Shown in pieces: positions 4,412 to 23,788 of a stretch of 49,573 bases of DNA (its first letter is position 1; each line of letters starts with the position of its first letter). The translations under genes and the position numbers were made by a program. The notes under the pieces were generated by a model. It made no database searches. It saw only the letters and a program-made list of their open reading frames with translations, and was not told where the DNA came from. Origin of the DNA: an uncultured bacterium (GTDB taxonomy: Bacteria > Patescibacteriota > Minisyncoccia > UBA6257 > 2-01-FULL-56-20); assembly GCA_963747905.1 (NCBI GenBank), contig CAVVHF010000025.1, positions 1 to 49,573 on the forward strand. The letters are read 5' to 3'.

Positions 4412-5205
4412 TGAGCCTTCGTAGCACGATCAAAAAACATGTGGCGTTGCCGTGGCCATTGCTCTATATATATCGCAAGGCATATTATGCACCAAAGGAT
4501 TTTCCGGCAGCATGCGGTTTTATTTTCCATGGGACGAAATCGCCAACGAGCTTTGGTGGCCGCCTGGCGCTCGTATTAAAATTTTATAAAATTTCGTACT
4601 ACGTCGATTGTCCGCATACCGAGCACGAGATGATTTCGATTGCGCGGCAGATCCTGGATCTTGGCACGGCGACGGCGGGTGTGCCGGGCGCGATTGTGGA
4701 AGCCGGTTCGTTTCATGGCGGGAGCACGGCAAAGCTTTCGCTCGTAGCAAAGCTTTGTGACCGGCGGTTCCACGTATTCGATTCATTTGAAGGTATGCCC
4801 GAAAACAACGAAGCGCACGGCAAGAGCATCTACGGTCGCGAGCATCACTTTCCAAAAGGCAGCCACGCGGTGCCGTTCGAAGAAGTAAAGAACAACGTCG
4901 CGCGCTACGGCGACGCATCGCGCGTACAGTTTTATAAAGGATTTTTCAGCGACACGATGCCGTCTTTCCACGAGCCGGTCGCCGCGGCGTGTGTGAATGT
5001 CGATCTTGCACAATCCACGCGCGACTGCTTCCGCTATCTTTATCCACTGCTCCCGCTGGGCGGCATCATTATCTCGCAGGATGCGCATTTTCCGTGGATC
5101 ATCGAGTTGTTCAACGACAACGCGTTTTGGGAAAAGGAGCTTGGCATAAAAAAACCGGCGATGCCGGGGCTGGGCACTTCGAAGTTCGTGACGGTGAGGA
5201 AGTGA
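4411..5205 (+). CDS. TylF/MycF/NovP-type class I SAM-dependent O-methyltransferase
   Basis: IVEAGSFHGGSTAKL...FHVFDSFEGMPE...VQFYKGFFSDT...VDLAQST matches the macrocin-O-methyltransferase (TylF) family pattern. Confidence 0.7.
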   Translation: MSLRSTIKKHVALPWPLLYIYRKAYYAPKDFPAACGFIFHGTKSPTSFGGRLALVLKFYKISYYVDCPHTEHEMISIARQILDLGTATAGVPGAIVEAGSFHGGSTAKLSLVAKLCDRRFHVFDSFEGMPENNEAHGKSIYGREHHFPKGSHAVPFEEVKNNVARYGDASRVQFYKGFFSDTMPSFHEPVAAACVNVDLAQSTRDCFRYLYPLLPLGGIIISQDAHFPWIIELFNDNAFWEKELGIKKPAMPGLGTSKFVTVRK

Positions 5206-5287
5206 CAGATAATCTTGACATCTCGATTTTTTTAATGGATACTGCGGGTAGCTTTCGGGCATAAATCAATTTGGGAATGAGGACAAC

Positions 5288-6292
5288 ATGAACTTTTCTG
5301 TGGACCAAGAACGTCGTCGGCAGATCGAATATTCTTTTAACCATCTCCCTTCGCTGGTCCGCATGCCGGAATCAGTGAAAGAGCCTATCGCAGATCTTCC
5401 GGAGGCAGAAGCTCTCGATGTGTATCTTTTACCGCTGCATCAGACCGACGGTGCCACCGGCAAGGCCATGCCTGCCTATTCTTTGCTCAAAAAAGCAGAG
5501 GGGGAGGGAAGGGTCTATCCGGGATGTACCATTGCTATTCCGAGTTCGGGGAATACTGCCTTGAGCATCGGATGGGATATGTCTGCGTTCGGCATTGCGA
5601 AGACCATCGCGATCATGAACGCCGATACTCCCGATGGCAAGATCGCCCAATTGGGATTTCCGGGGGTGACGGTTGAATTTCCCCGGCCTAAACAGACCAC
5701 GCTTGAACGTGCCATTGAATTGGAAAGGGAAACCGGTGCGGTCTATATCCGGCAATACGAGGATTGGGCAAGCGTTGAAGGGCATAAGCCGACCGCGAGG
5801 CATATCATTGCGGAGATGCAGGATCGAGGGAAGAAGCTTTCCTTCATCAGCGTCGCGATGGGGACGTGTTCCTTGCTTCAGGCGATGCATGACTATCTCA
5901 TGGACGATTTTCCGAATCTTCATGTTATCGGGATTGCGAACGAAGGGGCCCACACGCCTGGAGCGCGTACGCTCGAGGCGATCAAGAGGGATATCAAATT
6001 TCCCTGGGAAGATGTGGTAAAGCCCTACGGCCCCGTGCTTTGCGACAATATGTCGGCGTTCAAGAGGAGCCTGTGGTTGATGCGCAAGATCGGAAGGCCG
6101 GTAGGTCCGACGACCGGTCTCAGCGCTGAAGGATTGTTCAGGCGCTTCCGGTATCTCTCTGAACATAGGGAGCTTGAACAATATGCGGTCGACGGCAAGT
6201 ACGTCGCGATCATCATCTCTATGGATGCCGCTCCGTCCTACGGCCCCGAATACGCTGCCGTATTAGGAAAAGATCTCGGAGGTATCGAGTAG
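5288..6292 (+). CDS. PLP-dependent enzyme of the tryptophan-synthase-beta/cysteine-synthase (PALP) fold
   Basis: GATGKAMPAYSLL carries the Schiff-base Lys context. YPGCTIAIPSSGNTALSIG matches xxTSGNTGxxLA of CysK/CBS-like enzymes. Confidence 0.65.
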   Translation: MNFSVDQERRRQIEYSFNHLPSLVRMPESVKEPIADLPEAEALDVYLLPLHQTDGATGKAMPAYSLLKKAEGEGRVYPGCTIAIPSSGNTALSIGWDMSAFGIAKTIAIMNADTPDGKIAQLGFPGVTVEFPRPKQTTLERAIELERETGAVYIRQYEDWASVEGHKPTARHIIAEMQDRGKKLSFISVAMGTCSLLQAMHDYLMDDFPNLHVIGIANEGAHTPGARTLEAIKRDIKFPWEDVVKPYGPVLCDNMSAFKRSLWLMRKIGRPVGPTTGLSAEGLFRRFRYLSEHRELEQYAVDGKYVAIIISMDAAPSYGPEYAAVLGKDLGGIE

Positions 6293-6312
6293 TCATTCCC
6301 AGATTTCGACCA

Positions 6313-6353
6313 GCCGCCGGCGCACTATGTGTTCCGGCGGCCTTTTCTTTTTT
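6313..6353 (+). terminator. Intrinsic terminator ending the cofE-like/MT/PLP operon
   Basis: GCCGCCGG (6313..6320) pairs with CCGGCGGC (6334..6341), followed by CTTTTCTTTTTT. Confidence 0.75.
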
Positions 6354-6379
6354 ATGGAATCGTATAATATAGAGGGACT

Positions 6380-7138
6380 ATGCATAACAATATTGGCTTA
6401 GAAAAAACCGGACAGGCAAACAAGGCGACGATATGGTTTATCGTCGGGTTTATCGTGGTTGTCACGGCGGGGGCGATCATCGCGGGTGCGTATTCGAGCG
6501 GTACGGCGTCGTCTTCGAACTCAAACACGGCCAGCAGCACCTTCGTGGCGACAACGGTGCCGGCGATCACATCAGCCGATTGGACGGAGGGTAACCCGAA
6601 CGCGAAGGTCTCGCTCGTGGAGTATGGCGACTTTGAATGTCCGGCATGTGGTGAATATTCTCCAGTTGTGGAGCAGGTCGTACAGAATCACAGCAGTACC
6701 GTGAGGTTTGTGTTCCGTAACTTCCCGCTTTATACCATCCATCCGTTCGCGGGGATCAGCGCGCAGGCGGCAGAGGCGGCTGGGCTCGAAGGAGGCATGG
6801 CGAAGTATTGGGCGATGAATAATCTCCTTTATAGCAAGCAGTCGGAGTGGTCGTTGGATACCAGCGTTGCTCCCGCCGATCTTGTCAGTAAATATTTTGA
6901 CGGATACGCGCAGTCGATCGGCCTTGATGTGAACACGTTCAACAATGACATTAATGCGGCGTCGGTGATGCAAAAGATCCAAACCGATGTGAATGGCGGT
7001 ACCGCCGCGCAGATCGACCACACACCGACATTCTTTGTGAACCTCAAACAGATCCCGAACCCAACGAGCCTTGCGGATTTTGAATCGGTGCTGAACGCGG
7101 CGATAGCATCATCTTCATCCGCGACCTCTACTCAATAG
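6380..7138 (+). CDS. Membrane-anchored DsbA-like thiol:disulfide oxidoreductase
   Basis: N-terminal TM helix, Ser/Thr-rich linker, then VEYGDFECPACGEY (CPAC active site) and a thioredoxin fold. TATAAT lies at 6363..6368 upstream. Confidence 0.8.
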   Translation: MHNNIGLEKTGQANKATIWFIVGFIVVVTAGAIIAGAYSSGTASSSNSNTASSTFVATTVPAITSADWTEGNPNAKVSLVEYGDFECPACGEYSPVVEQVVQNHSSTVRFVFRNFPLYTIHPFAGISAQAAEAAGLEGGMAKYWAMNNLLYSKQSEWSLDTSVAPADLVSKYFDGYAQSIGLDVNTFNNDINAASVMQKIQTDVNGGTAAQIDHTPTFFVNLKQIPNPTSLADFESVLNAAIASSSSATSTQ

Positions 7139-7577
7139 TTCGCATCTCGCGTTGGTGCGCGCGCTTTTTAATGGCCTCGCGCTTATCGGATTTTTTACGC
7201 GTGTGGCCGAGACCGAGTTCGATCTTAATCAAACCGTGTTTAAGGTACGCGCGAAGCGGGATGACGTGCCGGGATTTATCAATGAGCGCGCCCTGCAATT
7301 CTTTTATCTCATTTTTGGATAATAATAGCCGGCGCGCACGGTCTTCCTCGTAATCCGGCGGCGTGTTGCCGGACTGATACGGAGGGATGTGCGAGTTCAC
7401 GAGCCACGCCTCGCCGCCGCGGATGAGCACGTGCGCGCCGGCAATCTGAAATCGGCCGCCTTTTGCGCTTTTTACTTCGTGTCCCTGGAATTCGATCCCT
7501 GCCTCGTATTTCTGCAGGATCTCGTAGTCAAAGCGCGCTCGGCGATTTTCCGCAATGGTATCCATTCGTGTGTCCAT
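7128..7577 (-). CDS. smpB: SsrA-binding protein SmpB
   Basis: IAENRRARFDYEI...GIEFQGHEVKS...AWLVNSHIPPY...RRLLLSKNEI...PLRAYLKHGLIKIELGLGHTRKK is the canonical SmpB sequence. Confidence 0.92.
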   Translation of the reverse strand: MDTRMDTIAENRRARFDYEILQKYEAGIEFQGHEVKSAKGGRFQIAGAHVLIRGGEAWLVNSHIPPYQSGNTPPDYEEDRARRLLLSKNEIKELQGALIDKSRHVIPLRAYLKHGLIKIELGLGHTRKKSDKREAIKKRAHQREMRTIE

Positions 7578-7583
7578 GATTTC

Positions 7584-7589
7584 ATTCTA
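7584..7589 (-). promoter_or_regulatory. -10-like box TAGAAT 6 nt upstream of the smpB ATG (leaderless-type)
   Basis: The minus strand reads TAGAAT-GAAATC-ATG(7577). Confidence 0.45.
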
Positions 7590-7878
7590 CATTAGTTGTG
7601 AAAACTTATCAGAAAAAATAGAAGGCCCGCTGAGATATATTAAAAGAATATAAAATCAGAGAGCCTTGGTATAAATACTTGAATTTCTGTGTTATTTTAA
7701 AGGAACAGGTGGCAGTGGGGTGGGAGGCGCTAGCTAACGATCAAGACCAAGCCGATCGCAAAATCAAGACTAGCACGCGAAGAATATCATCCCGCCGGCT
7801 AGTAGGCGCCCTCGTGGAGAGTCGCTACTAAGGACCACTGCCTGGCTGTACTATACAATATCTTTTTAGAGTTGTCCA

Positions 7879-9603
7879 ATGAAAAAAGAATTATCTGCAA
7901 TAGTACAAAAGATCTTTGGCGCGGGTCCACTAGACGCACCCATCGACATTTCCGTCCCTGACGAGGAACTTTTCGGGCACTATTCGACGAACTTTGCACT
8001 GCGCGCCGCCAAGGCGAAGGGCGTTCCGCCACTCGAGCTCGCGAAGGAGTGTGCCACGCGCATTGCCGCTGGCGCACCTGCGGGATTTTTTCAAAAAGTG
8101 GAAGCCGCCGCGCCGGGATTTATTAATTTTTGGTTAAGCGATAAAACATTGCAGGATGAATTCAAGCGTATTGCGGCGGATAGAAAATATGGTAACGGGA
8201 ATATCGGAGAAGGGAAGACGGTGATTGTGGAATATTCCCAGCCGAACATTGCAAAGAAGATGCACGTCGGCCATATGCGCACCACAATCATCGGCGCCGC
8301 GCTTGCGAACATTTTGGAGCAGTCCGGCTATCGCGTGGTGCGGTGGAACTATCTAGGCGATTGGGGTACGCAGTTCGGCAAGCTCATCGCTGCGTATAAG
8401 ATGTGGGGGAATAAAGCGGCCGTCGAAAAGGACCCCATCGAGGAATTGCAAAAATTGTATGTGCGGTTTCACGCGGAGATGAAGACGGATCCGGCGCTCG
8501 AAAAACGCGGGCAGCAGGAATTTAAAAAACTGGAAGACGGCGATCGCGAGAATCGGAAGCTTTGGGAGTGGTTTAAAAAAGAATCACTCAGGGAGTTTAT
8601 GAAGATGTATCGCACGCTGGATGTTGATTTTGACGTGTGGATTGGCGAAGCGTTCTTTGAGCGTGAAATGAAGGCGACGGTCAAGGAGCTGATGGACGCG
8701 CACATCGCGGAGCGTAGCGAAGGCGCGGTGGTGGTCAAGCTTGATGACGTCGGATTGCCGCCCGCGCTCATTCAAAAATCCGACGGCGCGAGTTTGTACC
8801 TTACGCGCGATATCGCGAATCTTCGCTATCGTTTGAAAAAATATAAGCCGGCAAAAATATTATATGTGGTGGGTAATGAGCAGGCGCTCGCGTTCGAGCA
8901 GCTCTTCGCGGTAGCAAAAAAACTTGGGTGGGATGCCAAGGACGTTGAATTAAAGCATATAAAATATGGGCTTGTTTTGGGGAGCGGCGGCAAAAAACTT
9001 TCCACGCGCGAGGGTACAGCCCAGCTTTTGGAAGGCGTCATTGATGAAGCGGTGACCCGCGCGCGCGAGGTAATCGACGCGAAAAATCCCGATCTTGCGC
9101 CAAAGGAAAAAGATGCGATCGCGATGGCGGTCGCGCTCGGCGCGCTGCGCTACAACGACCTCAAGGAAAACCGTACCACGGATATTATTTTCGACTGGGA
9201 AAAGATGTTGGATTTTTCCGGCGACAGCGGGCCATATCTGCAATACACCTACGCGCGGTTGAAGAGTATCTTGCGCAAATCTAAAATCCCCAGTGCCAAG
9301 CTCCGGCCTGGCGCTGTTGATGTGACCACGCTCGGGCGTACCACCGAGCTCGCGCTCATACGGAAGCTGTTTGAGTTTCCCGACGTCGTCGAGCGCGCAG
9401 GCGAATTGTACTCCACGAGTACGCTCGCGGTGTATCTCTATAAGCTCGCGGTGACGGCGAATAAGTTTTACGAGACGACGCCGATTTTGAAAGATGACGA
9501 TGCCGCGCGGCGCAATGCGCGGCTACTGCTCGCCACCACCGCAGCGCAAGTACTGCAGAAAGGGCTGGGGCTGCTCGGGATCAAGACGCTTGAAAAAATC
9601 TAG
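7879..9603 (+). CDS. argS: Arginine--tRNA ligase
   Basis: 574 aa with SQPNIAKKMHVGHMRTTIIG (HIGH region), the Add-1 N-domain, and the DALR anticodon-binding C-terminal region. Confidence 0.95.
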   Translation: MKKELSAIVQKIFGAGPLDAPIDISVPDEELFGHYSTNFALRAAKAKGVPPLELAKECATRIAAGAPAGFFQKVEAAAPGFINFWLSDKTLQDEFKRIAADRKYGNGNIGEGKTVIVEYSQPNIAKKMHVGHMRTTIIGAALANILEQSGYRVVRWNYLGDWGTQFGKLIAAYKMWGNKAAVEKDPIEELQKLYVRFHAEMKTDPALEKRGQQEFKKLEDGDRENRKLWEWFKKESLREFMKMYRTLDVDFDVWIGEAFFEREMKATVKELMDAHIAERSEGAVVVKLDDVGLPPALIQKSDGASLYLTRDIANLRYRLKKYKPAKILYVVGNEQALAFEQLFAVAKKLGWDAKDVELKHIKYGLVLGSGGKKLSTREGTAQLLEGVIDEAVTRAREVIDAKNPDLAPKEKDAIAMAVALGALRYNDLKENRTTDIIFDWEKMLDFSGDSGPYLQYTYARLKSILRKSKIPSAKLRPGAVDVTTLGRTTELALIRKLFEFPDVVERAGELYSTSTLAVYLYKLAVTANKFYETTPILKDDDAARRNARLLLATTAAQVLQKGLGLLGIKTLEKI

Positions 9604-9661: not shown

Positions 9662-10015
9662 ATGCCTAATAAGGGAGCAAAACTTTTTCCTGACGACGTT
9701 CGGACAATTGTGTTCTCAACCGGCAAGATACGCACGGCCATCACCGCAAAGATCATTTTCCGCAATAAAGCGGCGATGGCTGCTATCCCGGATTGGGTGT
9801 GTCAGAGCGTGTTCTCGCCGGAAGGGATCATGTTGAAGAAGAACCTGTTTGTCGATTCTCACTTGGTCTACGACGTGAACAAGCAGGAATGCCTTCGAAT
9901 CCTGGATTGGTTCCCCGGGCCGGTCGACCATGGCGATACCATTGCACGGGAGGCGTTGATCCCATGGGAGGGCATTAAGGCTTTCAAGGCGCAGACCGAA
10001 GCCGAGCCAGCGTAA
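9662..10015 (+). CDS. Hypothetical protein (117 aa)
   Basis: SD AGGAGG (9652..9657) precedes ATG 9662, and an intrinsic terminator follows. No family recognised. The upstream part of ORF 9494..10015 overlaps argS and is discounted. Confidence 0.5.
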   Translation: MPNKGAKLFPDDVRTIVFSTGKIRTAITAKIIFRNKAAMAAIPDWVCQSVFSPEGIMLKKNLFVDSHLVYDVNKQECLRILDWFPGPVDHGDTIAREALIPWEGIKAFKAQTEAEPA

Positions 10016-10038
10016 TGGGTGAACCCGTGCAGATAACG

Positions 10039-10067
10039 CGGAGCGTACAAGCGCTCCGTTTTTTTCT
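10039..10067 (+). terminator. Intrinsic terminator
   Basis: CGGAGCG (10039..10045) pairs with CGCTCCG (10052..10058), followed by a T7 run. Confidence 0.75.
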
Positions 10068-10103
10068 TTGAAAATCCCCCCAAAACCTGCTATTTTAATA
10101 GGA

Positions 10104-13100
10104 ATGGTCAAGAACGCTTTGAAAAAGGTAACGGCAAAAAAAATTTCCACTCCGGCCTTTCTTAAAGAAGGCGAATTTGATCTTCCTGGGCTTGAAGAAA
10201 AAGTGCTGGTATTTTGGGATGAGCAACATATTTTTGAGAAGTCGCTTTCGAAAAAGAATGGCGCAAAGAGTTTTATTTTTTATGAAGGGCCGCCGTATGC
10301 CAATGGCAAGCCGGCGATTCATCACGTTATCAGCCGCATCGTAAAGGATGTGATTCTGCGGTATAAAACGATGCAGGGATATGAGGTCCCGCGCCGCGCC
10401 GGATGGGACACCCACGGCCTGCCGGTGGAGATCGCTACGGAGAAAGTGCTGGGGTTGAAATCGAAAAAGGATATTGAGGAGTTCGGCATGAAGCTTTTCA
10501 ACGAGAAAGCGCGCGAGCAGGTGTGGGTCTATAAGGATGAATGGGAACGGATGACGCGCCGCATCGGATATTGGCTTGATCTCAAAAATGCGTATATTAC
10601 GTACGAGCCAGAATATATCGAATCGCTATGGTGGACGCTCTCGCAGATTTCAAAGCGCAAATTGCTCTATAAAGGATTCAAGGTGGTGCCATGGTGTACG
10701 CGCGATGGCACATCATTATCGTCGCACGAGCTCGCCCAGGGATATAAGGAGGTGAGCGACACTTCAGTGTATGTTAAATTTAAATTAAAACCCGGGCAGA
10801 AGATCGGCAATTTTACTACTGATGACAAGACGTATATTTTGTCATGGACAACGACGCCATGGACCTTACCGGGAAATGTCGCGCTCGCGGTGGGCGAAAA
10901 GATCGACTACGTAAGGACGGAACAGAATGGTGAGAGTTTGATTCTCGCAAAAAGCCGTCAAGAAATTTTGAGAGAAAAAGAGAATCCAAAAGTAGTAATA
11001 ATAGATCAAGAAATGATAGGGAGTGTTTTGCTTGGGTTAGAATACGAGCCTCTTTTTAATGTTCCCTCTCTAAAATCGGAGAAGTCTTATAAGATCTATC
11101 ACGCCAATTTTGTGACGACGACCGATGGCACGGGAGTGGTGCACACGGCGGTAATGTACGGCGAGGACGACTACGCACTTGGTAAAAAAATTGGTCTGCC
11201 GGAACGCCATACGGTTGATGAGAATGGGAAATTTACCAAAGAGATTCACGGATTGACCGGAGAATATGTGAAATCAAAAGAAACGGAAGATCATATTTTC
11301 AAACACCTCGAAGCAAACGGTAATTTATTGAGAACAGAGGCGTATGTGCATGAATACCCGTTTTGTTGGCGCTGCGGCACGGCGATATTGTATTACGCCC
11401 GCTCATCGTGGTTCATCGAGATGTCCAAATTGCGCAGCGAATTATTAAAAAACAACAAAACGGTCAACTGGACGCCGGGTCATGTAAAAAACGGACGGTT
11501 TGGTGAGTGGTTACGCGAGGTCAAGGACTGGAATCTTTCCCGTGAGCGGTATTGGGGTATGCCGCTTCCGATTTGGGAATGCAAGAAATGCGGTCATACC
11601 GAAGTGGTCGGCAGTATGGACGAGCTTGATCGTCTGGCGGGAGGTTCGAAGAATAGGTACGTGGCGATGCGCCACGGGGAATCGGAGAATGTCATATTTA
11701 AGATCGTCGATTCCGGCGACCAAAATTGTCGTCTCACGCAAAAAGGGAAAAAACAGATAGCTCTGGTTGCTAAGCAGCTCAAGAAGAAGAAAATAGATCT
11801 TATTTTCTCTTCCGATATTGTGCGCGCCAAAGAATCGGCTGAGATCATCGCGAAGGAATTGGGAGTGGAGGTTCGTTTTGATAAGCGGCTGAGGGAAATG
11901 AACCTAGGCGCGCTTTCCGGAAAGCCGGTCAGTGAATACTGGAAGGAATTTCCAGTAGCGGAGAGCCGGTTCGCTGGCCATGTGGATGCGAACAGCGAAT
12001 CGTATACCGATATCCGCGCGCGAGCATGGAATTTCCTGGAAGGGATGGAAAAAGAATATCACGGGAAGAATATTTTGATCATGACGCATGAAACGGTCGT
12101 GTGGATGCTTTCGCAGGCAGCGTTGGGATGGAGCGACCGCGAAGCGATGATAAAAAAGACGGGAGATGGCACGAAGGATTTTGTGGCACCGGCGGAGATC
12201 GTCCAATTCGGCGTGAAGAAGATTCCGCGTAACGATACTGGCCAGGTGGATCTCCACCGCCCATTTGCTGACGATATCTTTCCACCATGCCCAAAGTGCA
12301 AGGCGGCAATGGTTCGCGTGCCGGAAGTTGCTGACGTGTGGTACGACTCCGGAGCGATGCCGTACGCACAGTCGCATTATCCGTTCGCGCTCAAAAAAAC
12401 CAATATAAAAACGCTTTCCGGTCTTGACTATCCAGCCGACTTCATCGCGGAAGGGATGGATCAGACACGTGGCTGGTTTTATACGATGATGGCGATTGCT
12501 ACCGCGCTTGGATACAAGGCGCCGTATAAGAACGTCGTCGCGCTCGGACTGATCAACGATAAGTTCGGGCAGAAAATGTCCAAATCAAAGGGGAACGTTG
12601 TTGAGCCGTTCGCGATCATCAATAAATATGGCGTGGATGCGCTGCGCTGGTATTTCTTTACCGGATCGCCGCTCGGCGAGCCGAAGAATTTTGATGAGTT
12701 CGAGATCGCAAAGGCGTTCCGAAAAACGCATCTCATTGTTTACAACTCATTTATATTTTGGAAGACGTATGCCGATCAGAAGGCAAAGATGCCTGCAACG
12801 CCCAAAAATATTTTAGATGAGTGGATCCTTGTGCGTCTCGATCGGGTAAATGACAGTGCTACAAAAAAATTGAATGCATACGAGATTCGCGAAGCGGCGC
12901 TCGAGATCGAGACGCTCGTGGATGATCTCTCCCGGTGGTACATTCGCCGCTCGCGTCGACGGTTACAGCGGCCGGAGAGCGCGGCGGATCATGCCGCCGC
13001 ATCGGCGACGCTTGGATATATTTTGCTTTCATTGATAAAGATGATGGCGCCATTCACGCCGTTCTTCTCTGAAATATTTTACGGAGCACTCGGCGGCACA

Positions 13101-13667
13101 AAGGGTTCGGTTCATTTAGATGAATGGCCGAAAACAGCTCGAACCGGTGGCAAAAAGCGCTCTGTGGATGCTGATAAGAAAATGATAGCGCAGATGGATA
13201 TCGCACGGGAATTTGCCACTGCCGGACTCGCAAAGCGCGTGACGGCGGGTATTAAAGTCCGGCAGCCGCTTGCCTCGATGACTGTCGGCATAAAACTTGG
13301 AAAGGAATTTGAAAAGATCATTGCGGAGGAGGTAAATGTAAAGAAAATAATCTTTGTCGCGAAACAAAAAAGTGTCGCGCTCGATACCGCGATCACTCCC
13401 GCTCTGCGTGAGGAGGGTCTCTTGCGCGAGGTGGCGCGCATGTTCCAGGAGTTGCGGCAGAAGGCCGGGCTTGAGCCGAAGGATAAGATCGTCGCGTTGC
13501 TCGATATAACGGCAGATGCAAAGAATGCGATTGAAAACAACGAAGCTGCATTCAGGGCAGACATCGGTGCGACGGCCGTGGAGTACGGCCGCAGTGATAA
13601 ATTTATTGCCGAGGAGACGACAAAGCTCGAAGGCCAGGAGGTCTGGGTGGCGATACGGAAGAGCTAG
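10104..13667 (+). CDS. ileS: Isoleucine--tRNA ligase (type 2) carrying an inserted histidine-phosphatase domain
   Basis: The IleRS motifs are intact: GPPYANGKPAIHH, editing motif TTPWTLPGN, FCWRCG, CKKCGH...CPKCK and KMSKSKGN. About 200 extra residues (nt ~11640..12248) carry the RHGESEN / SSDIVRAKESA / THE motifs. The start is set at the first ATG after the upstream terminator; the ORF-track start 10068 is TTG. Confidence 0.93.
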   Translation: MVKNALKKVTAKKISTPAFLKEGEFDLPGLEEKVLVFWDEQHIFEKSLSKKNGAKSFIFYEGPPYANGKPAIHHVISRIVKDVILRYKTMQGYEVPRRAGWDTHGLPVEIATEKVLGLKSKKDIEEFGMKLFNEKAREQVWVYKDEWERMTRRIGYWLDLKNAYITYEPEYIESLWWTLSQISKRKLLYKGFKVVPWCTRDGTSLSSHELAQGYKEVSDTSVYVKFKLKPGQKIGNFTTDDKTYILSWTTTPWTLPGNVALAVGEKIDYVRTEQNGESLILAKSRQEILREKENPKVVIIDQEMIGSVLLGLEYEPLFNVPSLKSEKSYKIYHANFVTTTDGTGVVHTAVMYGEDDYALGKKIGLPERHTVDENGKFTKEIHGLTGEYVKSKETEDHIFKHLEANGNLLRTEAYVHEYPFCWRCGTAILYYARSSWFIEMSKLRSELLKNNKTVNWTPGHVKNGRFGEWLREVKDWNLSRERYWGMPLPIWECKKCGHTEVVGSMDELDRLAGGSKNRYVAMRHGESENVIFKIVDSGDQNCRLTQKGKKQIALVAKQLKKKKIDLIFSSDIVRAKESAEIIAKELGVEVRFDKRLREMNLGALSGKPVSEYWKEFPVAESRFAGHVDANSESYTDIRARAWNFLEGMEKEYHGKNILIMTHETVVWMLSQAALGWSDREAMIKKTGDGTKDFVAPAEIVQFGVKKIPRNDTGQVDLHRPFADDIFPPCPKCKAAMVRVPEVADVWYDSGAMPYAQSHYPFALKKTNIKTLSGLDYPADFIAEGMDQTRGWFYTMMAIATALGYKAPYKNVVALGLINDKFGQKMSKSKGNVVEPFAIINKYGVDALRWYFFTGSPLGEPKNFDEFEIAKAFRKTHLIVYNSFIFWKTYADQKAKMPATPKNILDEWILVRLDRVNDSATKKLNAYEIREAALEIETLVDDLSRWYIRRSRRRLQRPESAADHAAASATLGYILLSLIKMMAPFTPFFSEIFYGALGGTKGSVHLDEWPKTARTGGKKRSVDADKKMIAQMDIAREFATAGLAKRVTAGIKVRQPLASMTVGIKLGKEFEKIIAEEVNVKKIIFVAKQKSVALDTAITPALREEGLLREVARMFQELRQKAGLEPKDKIVALLDITADAKNAIENNEAAFRADIGATAVEYGRSDKFIAEETTKLEGQEVWVAIRKS

Positions 13668-13691: not shown

Positions 13692-14672
13692 CTAGTATCC
13701 CACCTTCTTCTTTACTTCCATCATCTTTTTCGCGGCGACTGTGCCTGCTTTCTTTGATCCGTCAGCTAAAATTTTTCTGATTGCCGCGGGCTTGGCGAGC
13801 AATTCTTTCTTCGCCGCACGGAATGGCGCGAAATGTTCAACAACAACCTCGGTGAGTCGCGTTTTTAAAACAGAATAGCTTTCGCCGGAGAATTCCTTTG
13901 CCGCCATCGCGGGCTCCATATGGGTGAGCGCGCCATAGAGCTCCAACAAATTGGAAAGTCCGGGTTTGCGCTCGACATTATACACGATCATTGTATCGGA
14001 ATCGGTTACCGCGCGCGCGATCTTTTTCTGCACCGCTTCCGGCGTGTCGTCCAAAAACAAGCAGCCGTCCGGATCGGACTTGGACATCTTGCGCAGCGGA
14101 TCTTTGAGCGACATCACGCGGGGCGTTTTGGTGAGCAGCCCTTTTGGCTCGATGAACGTCGCGCCGAAACGTGCGTTGAACTTTCGCGCCACCGTGCGCG
14201 TGAGCTCAAGGTGCTGAAGCTGATCGTCGCCCACGGGCACCACCGCCGCGTCGTATAGGATGATGTCCGCCGCCATGAGTACGGGGTAATCAAAGAGCCC
14301 CGCGTTCACGTTCGCCGCCTGCCGCGCCGATTTATCCTTGTATTGTGTCATACGTTCCAGCTCTCCCATCGGTGTGATCGTGTTCAATACCCACGCGAGC
14401 TGATTGTGGAGGGGGATCTGCGATTGCTGATAGATGACGGATTTTTTCGGATCAAGCCCGGCGGCAAGGTAGTCTGCGGCGAGATTAACGATATTTTCAC
14501 TGAACACTTTTGGCTCCGGCCCTTCTGTGAGCGCGTGCAGATCTGCAAGAAAGAAGTAGTATTGATATTCGCCGGAGTCCTGAAGATCCACAAAGTTCTT
14601 GAGCGCGCCAAGATAGTTGCCAATATGGAGGCGACCGGTGGGCTGCATTCCGGAAACGAGAATGGGTTTCAT
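13692..14672 (-). CDS. trpS: Tryptophan--tRNA ligase
   Basis: 326 aa with SGMQPTGRLHIGNYLGA (HIGH) and KMSKSDPDG (KMSKS). The length is typical of TrpRS. Confidence 0.95.
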   Translation of the reverse strand: MKPILVSGMQPTGRLHIGNYLGALKNFVDLQDSGEYQYYFFLADLHALTEGPEPKVFSENIVNLAADYLAAGLDPKKSVIYQQSQIPLHNQLAWVLNTITPMGELERMTQYKDKSARQAANVNAGLFDYPVLMAADIILYDAAVVPVGDDQLQHLELTRTVARKFNARFGATFIEPKGLLTKTPRVMSLKDPLRKMSKSDPDGCLFLDDTPEAVQKKIARAVTDSDTMIVYNVERKPGLSNLLELYGALTHMEPAMAAKEFSGESYSVLKTRLTEVVVEHFAPFRAAKKELLAKPAAIRKILADGSKKAGTVAAKKMMEVKKKVGY

Positions 14673-15361: not shown

Positions 15362-17413
15362 CTATATCTCTATCACCACCGGCAAGATCATCGGTCTCCG
15401 CTTGGTCTTTGTGTACAAGTATTGCCCGACCTGATCGCGCAACAACGTCTTCACGTAGTCCGGCTCCACCTCGCGGAAGTTCGGGATGCGCGTCATGAGG
15501 CCGCGGATACGTTTGCGAATTTCATCTAGGATTTCTTGGTTATCTTTTAGATAGATGAATCCACGCGAGATGATGTCGGGATTTTTGAGCAAGCGACCCT
15601 TGTCGCGGTCGATGGTAAGAATGATGACGAGCATCCCTTCCGCGGCGAGCGCGCGGCGGTCGCGCAAGACGACTTCTTCCACGTCGCCCACGCCGAGGCC
15701 GTCCACCATCACATAGTATGCGGGAACTTCTTCTTTCGTGACTTTGAAGGTGTCTTTTGTGAGCTCGGCGACCTGGCCGTTATCCATAAGTCGCACGTTG
15801 TCTTTCAACACGCCGGATTCGCGTGCGGTTATGCCGTTCGCGGCGCGCATGAAATAGTAACCGTGTATTGGCATTAGGAATTTTGGCTTGAGCAACTTGA
15901 TGACGAGCCCGATGTCGCCTTTTGGCGCGTGACCGGAAGAGTGAATGTCTACCAAAGCGGAGTGATAGACGATCGCGCCCTGGCGCGCGAGGTTGTCTTT
16001 GACCGTCTGCACGCTACGCTCGTTGCCCGGAATGACGGACGACGAGAGCACGAACGTGTCGCCCGGCTTGATCTTGATGGAGCGGTGTTCTCCGTTGATG
16101 ATCTTCATGAGGCCGGCGTTCGATTCGCCCTGCGCGCCAGTGGTGAGGATCAACACCTTATCATCTTTATATTTACTGATCTCCTCCACGGAGATGAGCG
16201 TGCCTTCCTTAGCTTTTACGAAGCCAAGGTTCTGCGCGATCTGGATGTTCGTCTTCATGGAGTAGCCGTTCAGTGCCACCTTGCGTCCGATCTTCTCGGC
16301 GATCTTGATGATTTCCGCGATGCGGGTGATGAGAGAAGAGAACGTGGCGACCGCGATGCGTCCTTTGGCGGCACGGAATATTTCCTCTAAATTTTTCTCA
16401 ACCGTTTTTTCCGAGACCGAATGCCCCGGCTTCTCGGCCGCGGTGGAATCCACCATAAAGGTGTGAACGCCCATCTTCCCGAGCTTTTCGAATTCTTCGA
16501 GGCCATGTGCATTGCCCTCGTCGTCGTAATCCAAGCGGAAATCCGCGAAGTGGACGATGTTGCCGATCGGCGTCTTCATCATTACGCCGGTGGTTTCCGG
16601 AATCGTGTGCGGCACGCCAAAGAACAGCGCGGTGAAGTTGTTCGAAAGTTTTATCTCGTCGCCATCCTTAACGAGCTGTATATTCATTTTTGGTGCGTTC
16701 GGAAAATCATCCGAGCGTTTTTCGATGATCGCTTTTGTGATGGACGTCGCGTAGATCGGCGGATTGCCGATTCGGGCAAGTACGTGCGGCAGTGCGCCGA
16801 TGTGATCGTAGTGGCCGTGTGTCAAGATAATGGCAGCGATGTTCTGCTTTTTCTTTTCGAGATATTCGACATTCGGAATAATGTAATCGATGCCGGGCGT
16901 CTCTTCCTCCGGGAACTGAAGCCCCATGTCGATGATTACGATTTCGTTCTTGTATTCAAGGAACGAGCAGTTGCGGCCGATTTCCTCCAGACCGCCGAGC
17001 GGCACGAGGCGCACCGCGTCAGGATTCGGCTTTTCGTTCGGATCATGCGCGACTTGCGGGCGGGGACCCATCTTTGAATGTTGCTGTTGCGTACCCGTTG
17101 CACGCGGTGCACCAGGGCCGTGCCGGTATTCGCGGCGCGCTTCGCGTTCTTCACGCGACCCTCCTCCTCCGGTATTGCCACTGCTGTGTTGTGGGCGTGG
17201 TTGCGAGCGAGCGGGGGATGGCCCCGGGCGGACGCCCGGGTGCTGCGGTGGACGCGGCCCTTGGCGCGCCAGTCGTGGCGGCGCAGTTGTTGGCCTGTTT
17301 GATATTGGCATCGGCGCACGAGGCCGAATCTCCGGCGGTTTTATGCGGGGACGCTCTTTTGGCGTGGGCGTTGATCCCACTGCGTTGTTATTATTTTCGT
17401 TCTTTTTAATCAT
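15362..17413 (-). CDS. rnj: Ribonuclease J with a ~130-aa Pro/Arg/Gly-rich N-terminal extension
   Basis: VRLVPLGGLEEIG, ILTHGHYDHIG (HxHxDH), beta-CASP and the C-terminal domain are present. Residues 1-132 are low-complexity. An alternative internal start (Met115, nt 17071) would give a standard-length protein. Confidence 0.88.
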   Translation of the reverse strand: MIKKNENNNNAVGSTPTPKERPRIKPPEIRPRAPMPISNRPTTAPPRLARQGPRPPQHPGVRPGPSPARSQPRPQHSSGNTGGGGSREEREARREYRHGPGAPRATGTQQQHSKMGPRPQVAHDPNEKPNPDAVRLVPLGGLEEIGRNCSFLEYKNEIVIIDMGLQFPEEETPGIDYIIPNVEYLEKKKQNIAAIILTHGHYDHIGALPHVLARIGNPPIYATSITKAIIEKRSDDFPNAPKMNIQLVKDGDEIKLSNNFTALFFGVPHTIPETTGVMMKTPIGNIVHFADFRLDYDDEGNAHGLEEFEKLGKMGVHTFMVDSTAAEKPGHSVSEKTVEKNLEEIFRAAKGRIAVATFSSLITRIAEIIKIAEKIGRKVALNGYSMKTNIQIAQNLGFVKAKEGTLISVEEISKYKDDKVLILTTGAQGESNAGLMKIINGEHRSIKIKPGDTFVLSSSVIPGNERSVQTVKDNLARQGAIVYHSALVDIHSSGHAPKGDIGLVIKLLKPKFLMPIHGYYFMRAANGITARESGVLKDNVRLMDNGQVAELTKDTFKVTKEEVPAYYVMVDGLGVGDVEEVVLRDRRALAAEGMLVIILTIDRDKGRLLKNPDIISRGFIYLKDNQEILDEIRKRIRGLMTRIPNFREVEPDYVKTLLRDQVGQYLYTKTKRRPMILPVVIEI

Positions 17414-17868: not shown

Positions 17869-17870
17869 TG

Positions 17871-17954
17871 TGCTGGAGAGGGGAGTCGAACCCCTATGAT
17901 CTTGCGATCGCTGGCACCTGAAGCCAGTGCGTCTGCCAGTTCCGCCACCCCAGC
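17871..17954 (-). tRNA. tRNA-Leu (anticodon CAG), class II with long variable arm; no encoded CCA
   Basis: The minus strand reads GCTGGGGTGGCGGAACTGGCAGACGCACTGGCTTCAGGTGCCAGCGATCGCAAGATCATAGGGGTTCGACTCCCCTCTCCAGCA. The 7-bp acceptor (one G-U), D arm GCG/CGC, anticodon loop TTCAGGT and T arm AGGGG-TTCGACT-CCCCT are all present. Confidence 0.9.
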
Positions 17955-20351: not shown

Positions 20352-21887
20352 CTATATCAGCCCGTCCATCAAACTGTTTCCAGTCATATCCTGCGGCTTT
20401 GGGATCCCCATCAGTGCGAGGATCGTCGGCGCCACGTCAGCGAGAGAGCCGAGTGTTTCGAGCGCCAGGCGGTCGGCGTTCACGAATTTTTTCCCGCGAT
20501 ATTCCTGGGCGACGAGATAGAATGGTACGGGGCTGGCGTCATGTTGGCTTTCCGGCTCGCCAGTCACTTCGTTAATCATTTCCTCAATGTTGCCATGATC
20601 GGCGGTAATGAAGAGTAATGTGTCGGGATTGTCCGCGGCTTTCACAACGCGCGCGACTTGCGCGTCGAGCACTTTGATCGCCTCGAGCGCGGCATTGAAG
20701 TTTGCGGTATGCGCAATCGTATCAGCATTCGCGTAATTGACGAGGATAAAATCAAACCCGCGACTTTGGATTGCTTCCACAAGGCGGTCAGTGATGGCGC
20801 CGGCCATCATCTCCGGATGCTCATCCGGGCGCGGGCCGGTATTGGACGGCACGAGCGTGCGATATTCTCCTTTGAACGGCGGCTCGCGCAGGCCATTGAA
20901 AAAATAGGTGACGTGCGCGTACTTGTATGTTTCCGCCAGGCGTAGTTGGGTAAGCCCGGCATCGCTCAATACTTTTCCGATTGGATCCTTCACGGTGTCC
21001 GCGGGGAACGCGACGGGCACGTCGAACGCATCATCGTAATGGGTAAACGTCGCGACGTATAAATTATTGAACGTCGCGCGCGGAAAAAAATTGAAATCTT
21101 TTGTAATGAACGACGACGCAAGCTGGCGAATACTGTCCTCGCGATAATTAAAGAACACGAGCGCATCGCCGTCGGTCACTTTTTTATCTTCCGCGAAACG
21201 GAGAGCTGGCAGATATTCTTCAGTGGAGCCTTGTTTGTATGTGGCTTCAATGGTGGCCGTGGGATCGGTAACGAGCATGCCGCTCGTGCCGATCATCGCT
21301 TCGTACGCGGTCTGCGTGAGTCGCCAATTCTGGTTGCGATCCATCGCATAATAGCGGCCGACGAGCGTTGCCAAATATTCTTTCGGCACTTCATCCAGAA
21401 ATTTTTCAATAGAGCGCGGCGGACTGTCCTCGCCGTCCGCAAAAAGATGGAGATTTATTTTCATGATGCCCTCCTCCTGCGCCATCTTGATGAGCGCGCG
21501 CAAATGATCGAGCGACGCGTGCACGTTTGCTTTGGTGAGTAGGCCGGCGAAGTTGATCGCGCCGCCGCTTTCGCGTGCGTGCGCACATGCGGCTTTCAGT
21601 ACGGCGTTCTCAAAGAATGTGCCATTCTGGATAGCCATCGTGATCTTTGGATAATACTGATAGACGACTTTGCCGGCGCCGAGCGTGAGGTGGCCGACCT
21701 CGCTGTTACCGGTCTCGCCCCACGGAAGCCCGACGGCGATGCCGGAAGCTTGCAGGCTCGTGAGTGGATAATTTTCCGCGAGCCACGCGAACGTTGGCGG
21801 CTTTCCCACAAAGACAGGGTTTGTATGGTCGTTCCGGCCGATACCCCAGCCGTCGAGCACTATCAACACCGCGGTTTTCTTTGCCAT
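20352..21887 (-). CDS. gpmI: 2,3-bisphosphoglycerate-independent phosphoglycerate mutase
   Basis: 511 aa with VLIVLDGWGIG, SEVGHLTLGAG and ITADHGN, the metal and Ser-phosphotransfer motifs of iPGM. Confidence 0.95.
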   Translation of the reverse strand: MAKKTAVLIVLDGWGIGRNDHTNPVFVGKPPTFAWLAENYPLTSLQASGIAVGLPWGETGNSEVGHLTLGAGKVVYQYYPKITMAIQNGTFFENAVLKAACAHARESGGAINFAGLLTKANVHASLDHLRALIKMAQEEGIMKINLHLFADGEDSPPRSIEKFLDEVPKEYLATLVGRYYAMDRNQNWRLTQTAYEAMIGTSGMLVTDPTATIEATYKQGSTEEYLPALRFAEDKKVTDGDALVFFNYREDSIRQLASSFITKDFNFFPRATFNNLYVATFTHYDDAFDVPVAFPADTVKDPIGKVLSDAGLTQLRLAETYKYAHVTYFFNGLREPPFKGEYRTLVPSNTGPRPDEHPEMMAGAITDRLVEAIQSRGFDFILVNYANADTIAHTANFNAALEAIKVLDAQVARVVKAADNPDTLLFITADHGNIEEMINEVTGEPESQHDASPVPFYLVAQEYRGKKFVNADRLALETLGSLADVAPTILALMGIPKPQDMTGNSLMDGLI

Positions 21888-22291: not shown

Positions 22292-23788
22292 ATGGAAATA
22301 ACCTATATAGCGCTCGGCGCAGTGGTGTTTTTGGCGGTAGGGGTAGTCGCGGGATATCTCGCACGCAGATATTCGGGGGCAAATAAGCTCGCCGAAGCGG
22401 AAACGAAGGCAAAAGAAATTATTTTAGAGGCAAAAGAAAAAGCTGCCTCGCTTTCGGTTGAGTTAAAGAACGAAGAAAAGGATCGCCGCAAGGAGATCGA
22501 TGCGCTTGAGGCGCGGGTGTTGCATCGCGAAGAAACGTTGGATAAAAAACTGACGGACCTTTCCGCAGAAGAAGGGAAGCTTCGCGCGCGCGAGGAAGGC
22601 GCGAAGGCAAAAGAAGAGACGGTTGCCAAAAAAGAGAACGAGATCGAGTCGCGCATTGAGAAAATCGGCAATCTTTCTGTCGCGGAAGCGAAGGAAGAGA
22701 TTCTGCGGCGCGCAAAGGAAGATCGCTCGAATGATCTTGCGCAGTCGATCCAGAAGATCGATCGCGAGAACCGCGAGGAGGTGGAAAAGCGGGCTAATGA
22801 TATCATCACGATCGCGTTGCAGCGCTACGCGCGTTCACATGTGGCCGAAATGACGACGACGATGTTCCATCTGGAGGACGAAGACATAAAAGGCAAGATC
22901 ATTGGCCGCGAAGGGCGCAACATCCGTGCACTTGAGCGCGCCACCGGCGTTGAATTTATCATTGACGAGGCGCCGGACGCGATCATTATCTCGTCGTTCG
23001 ACCCGTTCCGCCGCGAAGTTGCGCGCCTCGCGCTCGAAAGGCTCGTGAAAGATGGCCGTATCCAGCCGGCGAAGATTGAGGAGAGCGTAGAGGCGGCGAA
23101 AGCCGACCTCGTCAAGCGTACGCAGGAGATTGGCGAGCAGGCCGCACAGGATCTTGGTGTATTTGATCTTCCTAAAGAATTACTCCAGATGATCGGGCGT
23201 CTGCACTTTCGCACGAGCTATGGTCAAAATGTACTCGTGCACTCGACCGAGATGGCATACATCGCGGAAATGATGGCGCGCGAGCTCGGCTTGAATGCCG
23301 AGGTGGCAAAGAAGGGCGCATTGCTCCACGATATCGGCAAAGCGATTGATCACGAAGTTGAGGGGACGCATGTGGAGCTTGGCATGAAGCTGTTGCGCAA
23401 GTACAACATCGATGAGCGTGTCATCGAGGCGATGCAATCGCATCACGACGATTATCCATATGCCCGGCCGGAGGCTTACGTGGTCACCGCGGCAGACGTT
23501 CTGTCCGCAGCTCGCCCGGGCGCTCGGCGTGGCACGTTGGAGAACTACGTAAAGCGCCTCGCGGACCTGGAAAAGATCGCGAGCGATTTCGCTGGAGTAA
23601 AGAGCGCGTACGCAATCGCCGCTGGCCGCGAGCTTCGCGTCTTTGTCATCCCGGAAAAGGTGGACGATTTTCGCGCGCTTGAACTGGCGCGTGAGATTGC
23701 CAACAAGATACAAACGGAGTTAAAATATCCTGGTGAGATAAAAGTGAATGTGATCCGCGAGATGCGGGCAGTGGAATATGCCCGCTAG
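22292..23788 (+). CDS. rny: Ribonuclease Y
   Basis: N-terminal TM helix, a long Glu/Lys coiled coil, the KH domain (GKIIGREGRNIRALERATGVEFIID) and the HD domain (HSTEMAYIAEMMA...LLHDIGKA). Confidence 0.95.
   Translation: MEITYIALGAVVFLAVGVVAGYLARRYSGANKLAEAETKAKEIILEAKEKAASLSVELKNEEKDRRKEIDALEARVLHREETLDKKLTDLSAEEGKLRAREEGAKAKEETVAKKENEIESRIEKIGNLSVAEAKEEILRRAKEDRSNDLAQSIQKIDRENREEVEKRANDIITIALQRYARSHVAEMTTTMFHLEDEDIKGKIIGREGRNIRALERATGVEFIIDEAPDAIIISSFDPFRREVARLALERLVKDGRIQPAKIEESVEAAKADLVKRTQEIGEQAAQDLGVFDLPKELLQMIGRLHFRTSYGQNVLVHSTEMAYIAEMMARELGLNAEVAKKGALLHDIGKAIDHEVEGTHVELGMKLLRKYNIDERVIEAMQSHHDDYPYARPEAYVVTAADVLSAARPGARRGTLENYVKRLADLEKIASDFAGVKSAYAIAAGRELRVFVIPEKVDDFRALELAREIANKIQTELKYPGEIKVNVIREMRAVEYAR

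Follow-up and report, generated by a model that had tools for sequence, protein, structure and literature searches.

Isoleucyl-tRNA synthetases of Parcubacteria that contain, or are encoded beside, a histidine phosphatase

Introduction

Why should a gene for isoleucyl-tRNA synthetase (IleRS) contain the whole of a second enzyme? The question is raised by ileS of an uncultured bacterium (GenBank assembly GCA_963747905.1, contig CAVVHF010000025.1), located at positions 10104..13667 of the forward (+) strand of a stretch of 49,573 nucleotides (nt), here called the window. An earlier examination of the letters alone (the sequence-only reading) had proposed that a complete histidine-phosphatase domain lies in frame within the gene, at 11640-12248, and this is borne out. 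Comparison with related genomes indicates, moreover, that the insert is the fused form of a phosphatase that is encoded elsewhere as a separate gene, tightly coupled to argS and ileS.

Aminoacyl-tRNA synthetases are among the best-studied enzymes. To our knowledge, the accessory catalysis of bacterial synthetases is essentially confined to the hydrolytic editing of mischarged amino acids, and we know of no role for a phosphatase in isoleucylation. Across a major branch of the candidate phyla radiation, IleRS is found here to be linked to a phosphomonoesterase, which is either encoded by a translationally coupled upstream gene or present as an insert. A pattern of this sort, fused in some genomes and adjacent in others, is usually taken as a "Rosetta stone" for shared function. 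What that function might turn out to be ranges from the repair or unblocking of tRNA ends, through defense against toxins or antibiotics that target IleRS, to a regulation specific to ultra-small episymbiotic bacteria. Since both free and fused forms are available, the question can be put directly to recombinant proteins.

Neither part is unusual, one being an IleRS2 and the other a PhoE-like phosphatase; it is for the combination that no description was found. Full-text literature searching yielded no published account of an IleRS, or of any tRNA synthetase, with a histidine phosphatase, in keeping with what had been said of the locus at the outset. Nor did targeted reading of a 2026 preprint on IleRS domain evolution, a paper on Parcubacteria synthetases, and a 2026 review of Minisyncoccota reveal any mention of the fusion. 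Public annotation hides the phosphatase domain behind generic names: the records give no more than "isoleucyl-tRNA synthetase" or "class I tRNA ligase family protein", the latter being the name of many such proteins at NCBI. The fusion is best described as a synthetase with an accessory catalytic domain, and its nearest precedents are NCBIfam family NF040702 and the mycobacterial RNase H/acid phosphatase, both considered below.

The insert is a small histidine phosphatase

Taken by itself, the insert (GGSKNRY...NDTGQV, amino acids (aa) 513-715; 11640..12248, +) matches Pfam PF00300 (His_Phos_1) with E=3.5e-36 and 125.1 bits, the gathering threshold being 21.7. The envelope of the match covers aa 522-678 (11667-12137, +), and the strings quoted in the sequence-only reading lie where it had placed them. 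Modeled in isolation with AlphaFold2 (AF2), the insert is confidently folded, with a predicted local distance difference test (pLDDT) score of 93.7 and a predicted template modeling (pTM) score of 0.90. The model has the complete branch-1 histidine-phosphatase fold and, according to Foldseek, template modeling (TM) scores of 0.75-0.80 to GpgP, PspA, PhoE, TIGAR, and the riboflavin-pathway HFP. A profile search of the PDB put PhoE at the top (6e-26), with PhoE, PspA, and CobC the best solved relatives. The expected catalytic residues are all in place: the RHG motif, comprising R523, the nucleophile H524, and G525 (11670..11678, +), the phosphate-binding R574 (11823..11825, +), the catalytic acid E598 (11895..11897, +), and the second catalytic histidine, H662 (12087..12089, +). 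By its sequence, then, the insert belongs with the small branch-1 histidine phosphatases of PhoE/PspA/GpgP/CobC-like kind and is complete, with its catalytic set intact; it is predicted to be catalytically competent and is apparently active. PhoE (1EBB/1H2E), PspA (4IJ5), GpgP (4PZ9/6S2Q), and CobC (6NRU) share with it their fold, size, and catalytic residues, at 23-33% identity. They differ from it in being free-standing enzymes with metabolite substrates (PspA is a phosphoserine phosphatase and GpgP a glucosyl-3-phosphoglycerate phosphatase).

The domain had been called "PGAM-like" on first reading. That is right insofar as it assigns the insert to branch 1 of the histidine phosphatases but wrong if a mutase is meant. 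The insert reaches none of the curated family thresholds for dPGM, CobC, GpmB, PspA, or SixA. It scores 27.7 bits against the 81.7 required by pgm_1 (TIGR01258) and 91 against the 225 of dPGM_arch (NF038349); with CobC (TIGR03162) the figures are 93.1 and 162.9 bits, and with SixA (TIGR00249) 39.1 and 74.5, only the N-terminal 70 residues being aligned. Because no family threshold is reached, the insert is best regarded, so far as sequence families can tell, as a generic small PhoE-like phosphatase rather than a mutase. Indeed, the window encodes a cofactor-independent phosphoglycerate mutase (iPGM) of its own 8 kb from ileS (20352-21887, -; Metalloenzyme and iPGM_N domains, E about 1e-64 and 2e-54), and this, together with the failure of the dPGM models, makes a glycolytic mutase unlikely.

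The weak similarity to SixA brings to mind another possibility. The branch-1 members SixA, PGAM5, and Sts-1 dephosphorylate proteins, and the insert might do so in cis, removing an inhibitory phosphorylation of IleRS or of a partner such as ArgRS, imposed, for example, by kinase toxins of the HipA/HipT-like type, whose targets are the active-site loops of synthetases. The domain would then be permanently tethered to its putative substrate, its catalytic set is intact, and the variation in copy number described below would fit an arms race. Yet the similarity, at 39 bits, falls well short of the 74.5 set for SixA, no kinase is conserved in the neighborhoods of the loci examined, and the RNA-binding-like charge of the free-standing form (see below) would be left unexplained. 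We consider a protein phosphatase quite improbable.

A parallel in architecture is the bifunctional RNase H/acid phosphatase (NF005567, of the Mycobacterium Rv2228c type), in which a CobC-like histidine phosphatase is joined to an enzyme that processes nucleic acids. With the phosphatase half of this family the insert scores 87 bits, the threshold for membership being 326 bits. The mycobacterial protein, however, is an end-to-end fusion with RNase H, whereas the phosphatase of the window is inserted in a loop of IleRS.

The synthetase and the site of insertion

The reading frame is open without interruption over 10068..13667 (+), and the Met codon at 10104 is taken as the start of ileS, backed by homologues of 1187 aa that cover the protein from end to end (100%). 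The gene so defined (1187 codons plus stop) is identified as encoding a type-2 IleRS with an embedded phosphatase by its open reading frame (ORF), TIGR00392, its homologues, and the AF2 model. The whole protein scores 828.1 bits with TIGR00392 (ileS), where the cut-off is 621.4. The claim that the motifs of the synthetase are intact holds as well: as judged by its motifs, the protein has every hallmark of a working type-2 enzyme. The class I signatures and the editing motif are kept in 118-120 of the 120 best full-length homologues, all of them fused (see below). The HIGH-type signature AIHH (aa 71-74; 10314..10325, +) retains H73/H74 in 119 of the 120, the remaining sequence being gapped there; the editing-domain (CP1) motif WTTTPWTLPGN (aa 248-258; 10845..10877, +) lies in a block, W248-N258, that is invariant in the alignment of fused homologues; and in the KMSKS loop (aa 824-828; 12573..12587, +), K, M, K, and the final S are found in 120/120 and the middle S in 118/120. 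Pfam recognizes an anticodon-binding domain (PF08264, aa 905-1056) and a type-2 C-terminal domain (DUF5915, aa 1090-1186), together spanning 12816..13661 (+). All this is what would be expected of the housekeeping-type IleRS2 of a Parcubacteria/Paceibacteria (Minisyncoccia) bacterium, and we take the gene to be one.

The loop that accepts the phosphatase is that of a Cys4 zinc knuckle; it belongs to the second half of the catalytic domain and precedes KMSKS by about 110 residues. As originally described, two CxxC halves bracket it: CKKC (C493 and C496; 11580..11591, +), with C493 in 120/120 and C496 in 119/120 homologues, and CPKC (C729 and C732; 12288..12299, +), with each cysteine in 120/120. 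IleRS resumes with DLHRP, which starts at 12249 (+).

Could a segment of this size be a normal part of the synthetase? In an alignment to Priestia megaterium IleRS2 (8c8w), residues 31-512 of the query correspond to 14-478 of the chain and residues 713-1082 to 484-847. The aligned blocks of the reference nearly abut, so about 200 residues stand where it has about 5. In insert-less Patescibacteria IleRS, both CxxC knuckles are kept, with a linker of about 15-20 aa between them. The insert is clearly not a normal subdomain. Otherwise, the protein shares with bacterial type-2 IleRS (P. megaterium IleRS2, 8C8U/8C8V/8C8W; Thermus thermophilus, 1ILE) the order of domains: catalytic HUP, CP1 editing, zinc knuckles, KMSKS, anticodon-binding, and type-2 C-terminus. 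The likeness to the P. megaterium enzyme is strong (phmmer E=1e-225), a 200-residue enzyme domain in place of the few residues at this point being the difference. The AF2 model of the full-length protein, built from a 106-sequence alignment, has a mean pLDDT of 87.6 and a pTM of 0.80 and resembles solved type-2 IleRS (Foldseek TM 0.79 to 8c8v); none of the solved IleRS structures that Foldseek matched to it has a phosphatase domain. The insert itself has a local pLDDT of about 95 and each linker one of at least 93, so that the phosphatase is confidently modeled as rigidly attached to IleRS.

Class Ia synthetases are no strangers to insertion modules before KMSKS, in the second half of the Rossmann fold (CP2/CP3 of IleRS and the leucine-specific domain of bacterial LeuRS; PMC11685878). 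The likeness is one of region. Those modules are small and non-enzymatic, whereas the insert amounts to an entire enzyme, active site included. The curated precedent for an IleRS with an extra catalytic domain is NF040702 (IleRS, N-acetyltransferase domain-containing). There the accessory domain is a GNAT, in another lineage; the protein of the window scores 320 bits with the family, against a cut-off of 1999, and has no GNAT match.

The fusion is widespread and its active site conserved

Fusions found in metagenome bins are a priori suspect, and it must be asked whether this one is real. All of the 120 best full-length homologues, ranging in identity from 90% down to 55%, carry both PF00133 and PF00300. 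Apart from one fragment of 837 aa, they are 1103-1261 aa in length. They represent at least 120 independent 90%-identity clusters drawn from JGI, ENA, NCBI, and Logan assemblies, and those that are named are assigned to Paceibacterota, Parcubacteria, or Patescibacteria. When the insert, with 45 residues of IleRS on either side, served as the query in an exhaustive search of 1.84 billion representatives of 50%-identity clusters, 194 clusters matched at E<=1e-30. Among the best 150 of these, nearly all span flank, insert, and flank in one stretch, down to 33% identity. In species-representative genomes, at least 566 relatives were confirmed, bearing such labels as Nomura-, Wolfe-, Lipton-, Lloyd-, Sungii-, Taga-, and Nealsonbacteria, Minisyncoccia, and Paceibacterota. 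Complete genomes, too, have the fusion (CP179887.1, OY970175.1, and OY970382.1). The insert is thus clade-wide in the Parcubacteria/Paceibacteria (Minisyncoccia) and not a peculiarity of one genome. A search with the insert alone returned no fused proteins despite the existence of some up to 90% identical, owing to a limit on the selection of candidates; it cannot tell whether the fused or the free form is closest, and its negatives need to be taken with care.

The active site has been preserved throughout. R523, H524, G525, R574, and H662 are invariant in 120/120 fused proteins, and E598 is E in 119 and D in the remaining one. In all architectures considered together, the R-H-R-[E/D]-H set is intact in 149/162 phosphatase domains. 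Meanwhile, the insert diverges faster than the synthetase core: mean pairwise identity across the 120 proteins is 51% for the former and 69% for the latter. Because the catalytic residues are invariant while the rest of the insert drifts, selection appears to act on the phosphatase active site. A working enzyme would be expected to show this pattern; a passenger in decay, or a spacer with a structural role only, would not.

A chimeric assembly can be rejected. The junctions are common to hundreds of independent assemblies, and there is no compositional break, GC content and skew being continuous across both junctions. Superficially PGAM-like motifs might suggest a glycolytic dPGM, or a pseudo-enzyme serving only as a scaffold, but the former is countered by the missed dPGM models and the iPGM 8 kb away and the latter by catalytic residues that are essentially invariant. 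All three explanations (scaffold, mutase, and chimera) are largely refuted and, even taken together, hardly credible.

A few oddities of assembly and naming may be mentioned here. At one locus (L001, P0001, on a 270-kb ENA contig), the insert-bearing ileS is divided among four abutting or overlapping ORFs (286, 220, 296, and 399 aa; 4470-8047). The division was considered as a real split of ileS and rejected: synteny is identical, and the four ORFs are probably the result of frameshift errors in the assembly. Many metagenome-assembled genomes with a Parcubacteria-type fused ileS (among loci L005-L084) are titled "uncultured Candidatus Saccharibacteria", probably a placeholder label, and an 8.5-kb contig (L064) is binned as Spirochaetia, probably a mis-binning.

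A free-standing phosphatase gene in the same neighborhood

Where might the insert have come from? Its nearest free-standing relatives are proteins of about 190 aa, 36-46% identical to it. The genes for six of them were looked up. In 6/6, argS precedes the phosphatase gene and ileS follows it, as part of the smpB / argS / ileS neighborhood seen also in the window, and the gene usually overlaps its neighbors or is separated from them by gaps of 0-20 nt. The IleRS encoded next to the free-standing phosphatase is insert-less, with a length of about 940-965 aa. A set of 80 genome loci retrieved with a mixed alignment gave the same picture. In about 75 of the 80, the phosphatase is in frame within ileS at the identical site. 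In the other 5 it is a separate ORF between argS and ileS, and 4 of these abut the start of ileS. In no case (0/80) was the phosphatase situated outside ileS or the slot between argS and ileS, and the closest free-standing relatives are encoded in that slot in 11/11 instances examined.

Only 1 of the 80 loci has a second copy of the phosphatase nearby, and for that reason the fused and free forms can be said to replace one another, being nearly mutually exclusive (79/80 loci). Within the window, tblastn found no second phosphatase gene or remnant, the gap between argS and ileS included. The single exception among the 80 (L073, 9070-9585) is a phosphatase-like match that scores 83 bits and lies downstream of a fused ileS, about 1 kb away.

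In a neighbor joining tree of the phosphatases, 97 of 106 inserts fall in one clade and the other 9 among the free-standing genes; a similar tree of the IleRS cores is congruent with it (neither carries support values). In the latter, one block of split-type IleRS serves as the outgroup, and other split-type IleRS are nested among fused ones, beside genomes with free-like inserts. A single fusion event is not cleanly supported, given the 9 stray inserts. From the congruence of the two trees, it therefore seems that phosphatase and IleRS co-evolved and that the fused or split state probably changed more than once.

The split-type IleRS have features of their own. At five of the split-type loci (L002, L004, L062, L079, and L087), they belong to a distinct lineage with HSPHRPWVDE...DVGNP in place of DLHRPY...EVxDVW. 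In some of these the first CxxC is degenerate, the order argS-phosphatase-ileS being kept.

The free and fused phosphatases differ also in charge. The free-standing form has a mean isoelectric point (pI) of 9.9 and a net charge of +10.8 per 100 aa, and in four loci the charge is from +12 to +18, values like those of SmpB and IF3. The neighboring enzymes (NUDIX, OTCase, ArgRS, and IleRS) reach +6 at most. The contrast with PhoE, the best solved relative, is considerable: pI about 10 for the free-standing Patescibacteria proteins vs 6.2. Fused inserts, on the other hand, have a pI of 8.3 and a charge of +2.0 per 100 aa, equal to that of the IleRS core. An affinity for polyanions that is needed when the enzyme is free, and dispensable once it is joined to a tRNA-binding enzyme, would be expected if the substrate were RNA, for which tRNA is the obvious candidate.

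Additional sites, additional copies, and additional domains

The site in the zinc knuckle is not the only one used. Of the 150 clusters listed, 8 contain the phosphatase domain twice, and a single partial protein contains it four times. Direct alignment places tandem pairs at the canonical site in P0332, P0377, P0349, and P0380. In P0340, the canonical site is empty and the phosphatase occupies a second site, at core residues 891/896, the start of the anticodon-binding domain; P0285 and P0384 have phosphatases at both the canonical and the 891/896 site, and P0355 at a third site (757/778) as well as at 891/896. A homologue search with the site-2 segment of P0340 returned mostly fragments of insert-less IleRS and added only one more cluster with the 891/896 layout, P0389. 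In all eight of the aligned forms, the extra-site and tandem copies have kept the catalytic set. Compared among themselves, the embedded domains show 30-36% identity, and as a rule they resemble one another more than they resemble PhoE.

These forms are not singletons but recur in several assemblies and in different gene neighborhoods. P0355 has six full-length members, on contigs of up to 1.06 Mb, and several full-length members represent the tandem forms. The gene for P0340, on a 268-kb NCBI contig, is complete and has other neighbors (AlaRS, UvrB, and UvrC), and its flanks best match IleRS labeled Chloroflexota. Neither P0340 nor P0355 lies in a neighborhood with argS synteny.

Other details of these proteins deserve mention. 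The two-domain IleRS carry phosphatase paralogs of two types: "a" is always at site 1, and "b" is either in tandem at site 1 or at site 2 (891/896), as seen in P0285, P0384, P0332, and P0377. The partial protein with four tandem copies (P0311) has them beginning near core residue 442. In P0340 (L089), residues 530-560 retain PRNDAGEVDLHRP at the empty site 1. The motif PRNDxG, which follows the insert in fused proteins, is thus present in a protein occupied only at site 2, and so it would seem either that the motif belongs to IleRS and not to the insert or that site 1 of P0340 was cleanly vacated.

Some lineages have gone further. The 13-member cluster P0310 (L092, 5001-9686; contigs up to 2.1 Mb) has both phosphatase and GNAT acetyltransferase domains inside IleRS. 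So does P0284, whose editing domain harbors in addition a tyrosine-transposase domain of RAYT/IS200-like type (81 bits, cut-off 80). Membership of these proteins in NF040702 was considered and rejected: they score 218-241 bits against the cut-off of 1999.

The presence of GNAT suggests an analogy with processed microcin C, which is acetylated by MccE/RimL and hydrolyzed by HinT. Perhaps IleRS is subject to an inhibitor that is phosphorylated or resembles an aminoacyl nucleotide, and the phosphatase, with GNAT in some lineages, inactivates this inhibitor at its target. The two clusters with both domains, the range of copy number from 1 to 4, and the fact that NCBI curates a separate family of IleRS with GNAT would all suit self-protection. 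Against it, no known phosphorylated natural inhibitor of IleRS was identified, histidine phosphatases act on phosphomonoesters and not on adenylate-type diesters, and the association with GNAT is found in a minority of lineages. Detoxification must be judged very unlikely. It and the protein phosphatase considered earlier are the lesser rivals; the main rival is a neutral one.

The loops of class I synthetases tolerate insertions, and the phosphatase may be no more than a neutral hitch-hiker, an ordinary small-molecule phosphomonoesterase without functional tie to IleRS. On this account, an adjacent gene was repeatedly copied into tolerant loops by local duplication or template switching, after which the free copy was lost, a case of constructive neutral evolution. 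With at least three loops in use and 1-4 copies tolerated, geometry seems uncritical; the neighbor joining trees imply several transitions between fused and split states; and the solved nearest relatives are all metabolite phosphatases. But adjacency alone would be insufficient to account for the embedded phosphatases of P0340 and P0355, which have no argS synteny. Nor would one expect from such a process a linkage that holds at 80/80 loci and in 6/6 look-ups, two forms that almost never occur together, linkers that are confidently and rigidly modeled, or the loss of positive charge upon fusion, which suggests a change in the way the enzyme meets its substrate. Both the hitch-hiker and the copying route by which it would have arisen strike us as unlikely, if serious, possibilities.

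What the phosphatase may do

Because the association with IleRS persists and has been re-invented, even where argS synteny is absent, a functional partnership is to be preferred to mere adjacency. The phosphatase would be a dedicated partner of IleRS, not a passenger, acting at the synthetase to hydrolyze a phosphate on some ligand that IleRS handles. We give this proposal, based as it is on comparative sequence data, about an even chance of being correct.

Which ligand? The sequence-only reading had placed the domain near the active site of IleRS and had it acting in cis on a nucleotide, a tRNA end, or an alarmone-type substrate, both of which are conjectures. The favored candidate is a tRNA whose end is blocked by phosphate: a 2',3'-cyclic, 3'-, or 2'-phosphate, or a pyrophosphorylated CCA end. 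Clearing the block at the synthetase would render the tRNA chargeable. The candidate is favored because the free enzyme has an RNA-binding-like charge that is gone once it is tethered to a protein that itself holds tRNA. That a blocking phosphate is removed from the tRNA end at the synthetase is nonetheless a tentative idea and, on balance, unlikely to be right. A broader form of the proposal would make IleRS, in Parcubacteria/Minisyncoccia and a few other lineages, the platform for a new pre-charging step, in which an obligate phosphatase, free in some genomes and embedded in most, strips phosphate or pyrophosphate from the 3' (or 5') end of tRNA, or from another IleRS-bound ligand, before aminoacylation. 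This is rather doubtful. If true, it would mean that synthetases take part in quality control or repair of a new class, different from the editing of amino acids, and the GNAT domains co-inserted in some lineages would be a second accessory activity.

Several considerations weigh against a dedicated partner that acts on tRNA. The nearest solved relatives all act on small molecules, not on RNA or protein. The use of three loops, with one to four copies, argues against a precise channel from one active site to the other and could also be obtained by a neutral process requiring only a neighboring gene and tolerant loops. There is no obvious reason why the repair of tRNA ends should be tied to IleRS instead of to the CCA-adding enzyme. 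Finally, the extra charge of the free form is diffuse over the domain rather than gathered in one patch, and it could serve in binding to IleRS or reflect the compositional bias of small proteins.

The surroundings of ileS in the window

The conserved upstream neighbor of ileS, argS, was identified by translation and synteny at 7879..9603 (+). Downstream, trpS (13692..14672, -) is a neighbor conserved in closer relatives. The gap between argS and ileS contains an ORF of 117 aa (9662-10015, +) that has a GGAGG ribosome-binding site and no Pfam match. It lies in the slot taken by the phosphatase gene in split-type genomes, and locus L001 has an 83-aa gene at the matching position.

Between this ORF and ileS is a terminator-like hairpin plus T-run (10038-10059, +). 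Directly after the hairpin is a promoter-like sequence, TTGAAA-17-TATTTT with a TG extension (10068-10096, +), which ends 8 nt before the ATG of ileS. Transcription of ileS may start from a promoter of its own, and the mRNA may be leaderless or nearly so. A search of Rfam found no T-box or other known RNA element upstream of ileS, the sole match being one tRNA.

The wider surroundings are rich in genes for RNA metabolism and translation. Besides argS, ileS, and trpS, they include RNase J (15362-17413, -) and tRNA-Leu(CAG) (17870-17954, -), and farther along the window are RNase Y (22292-23788, +) and tRNA-Ser(GGA) (48907-48994, +).

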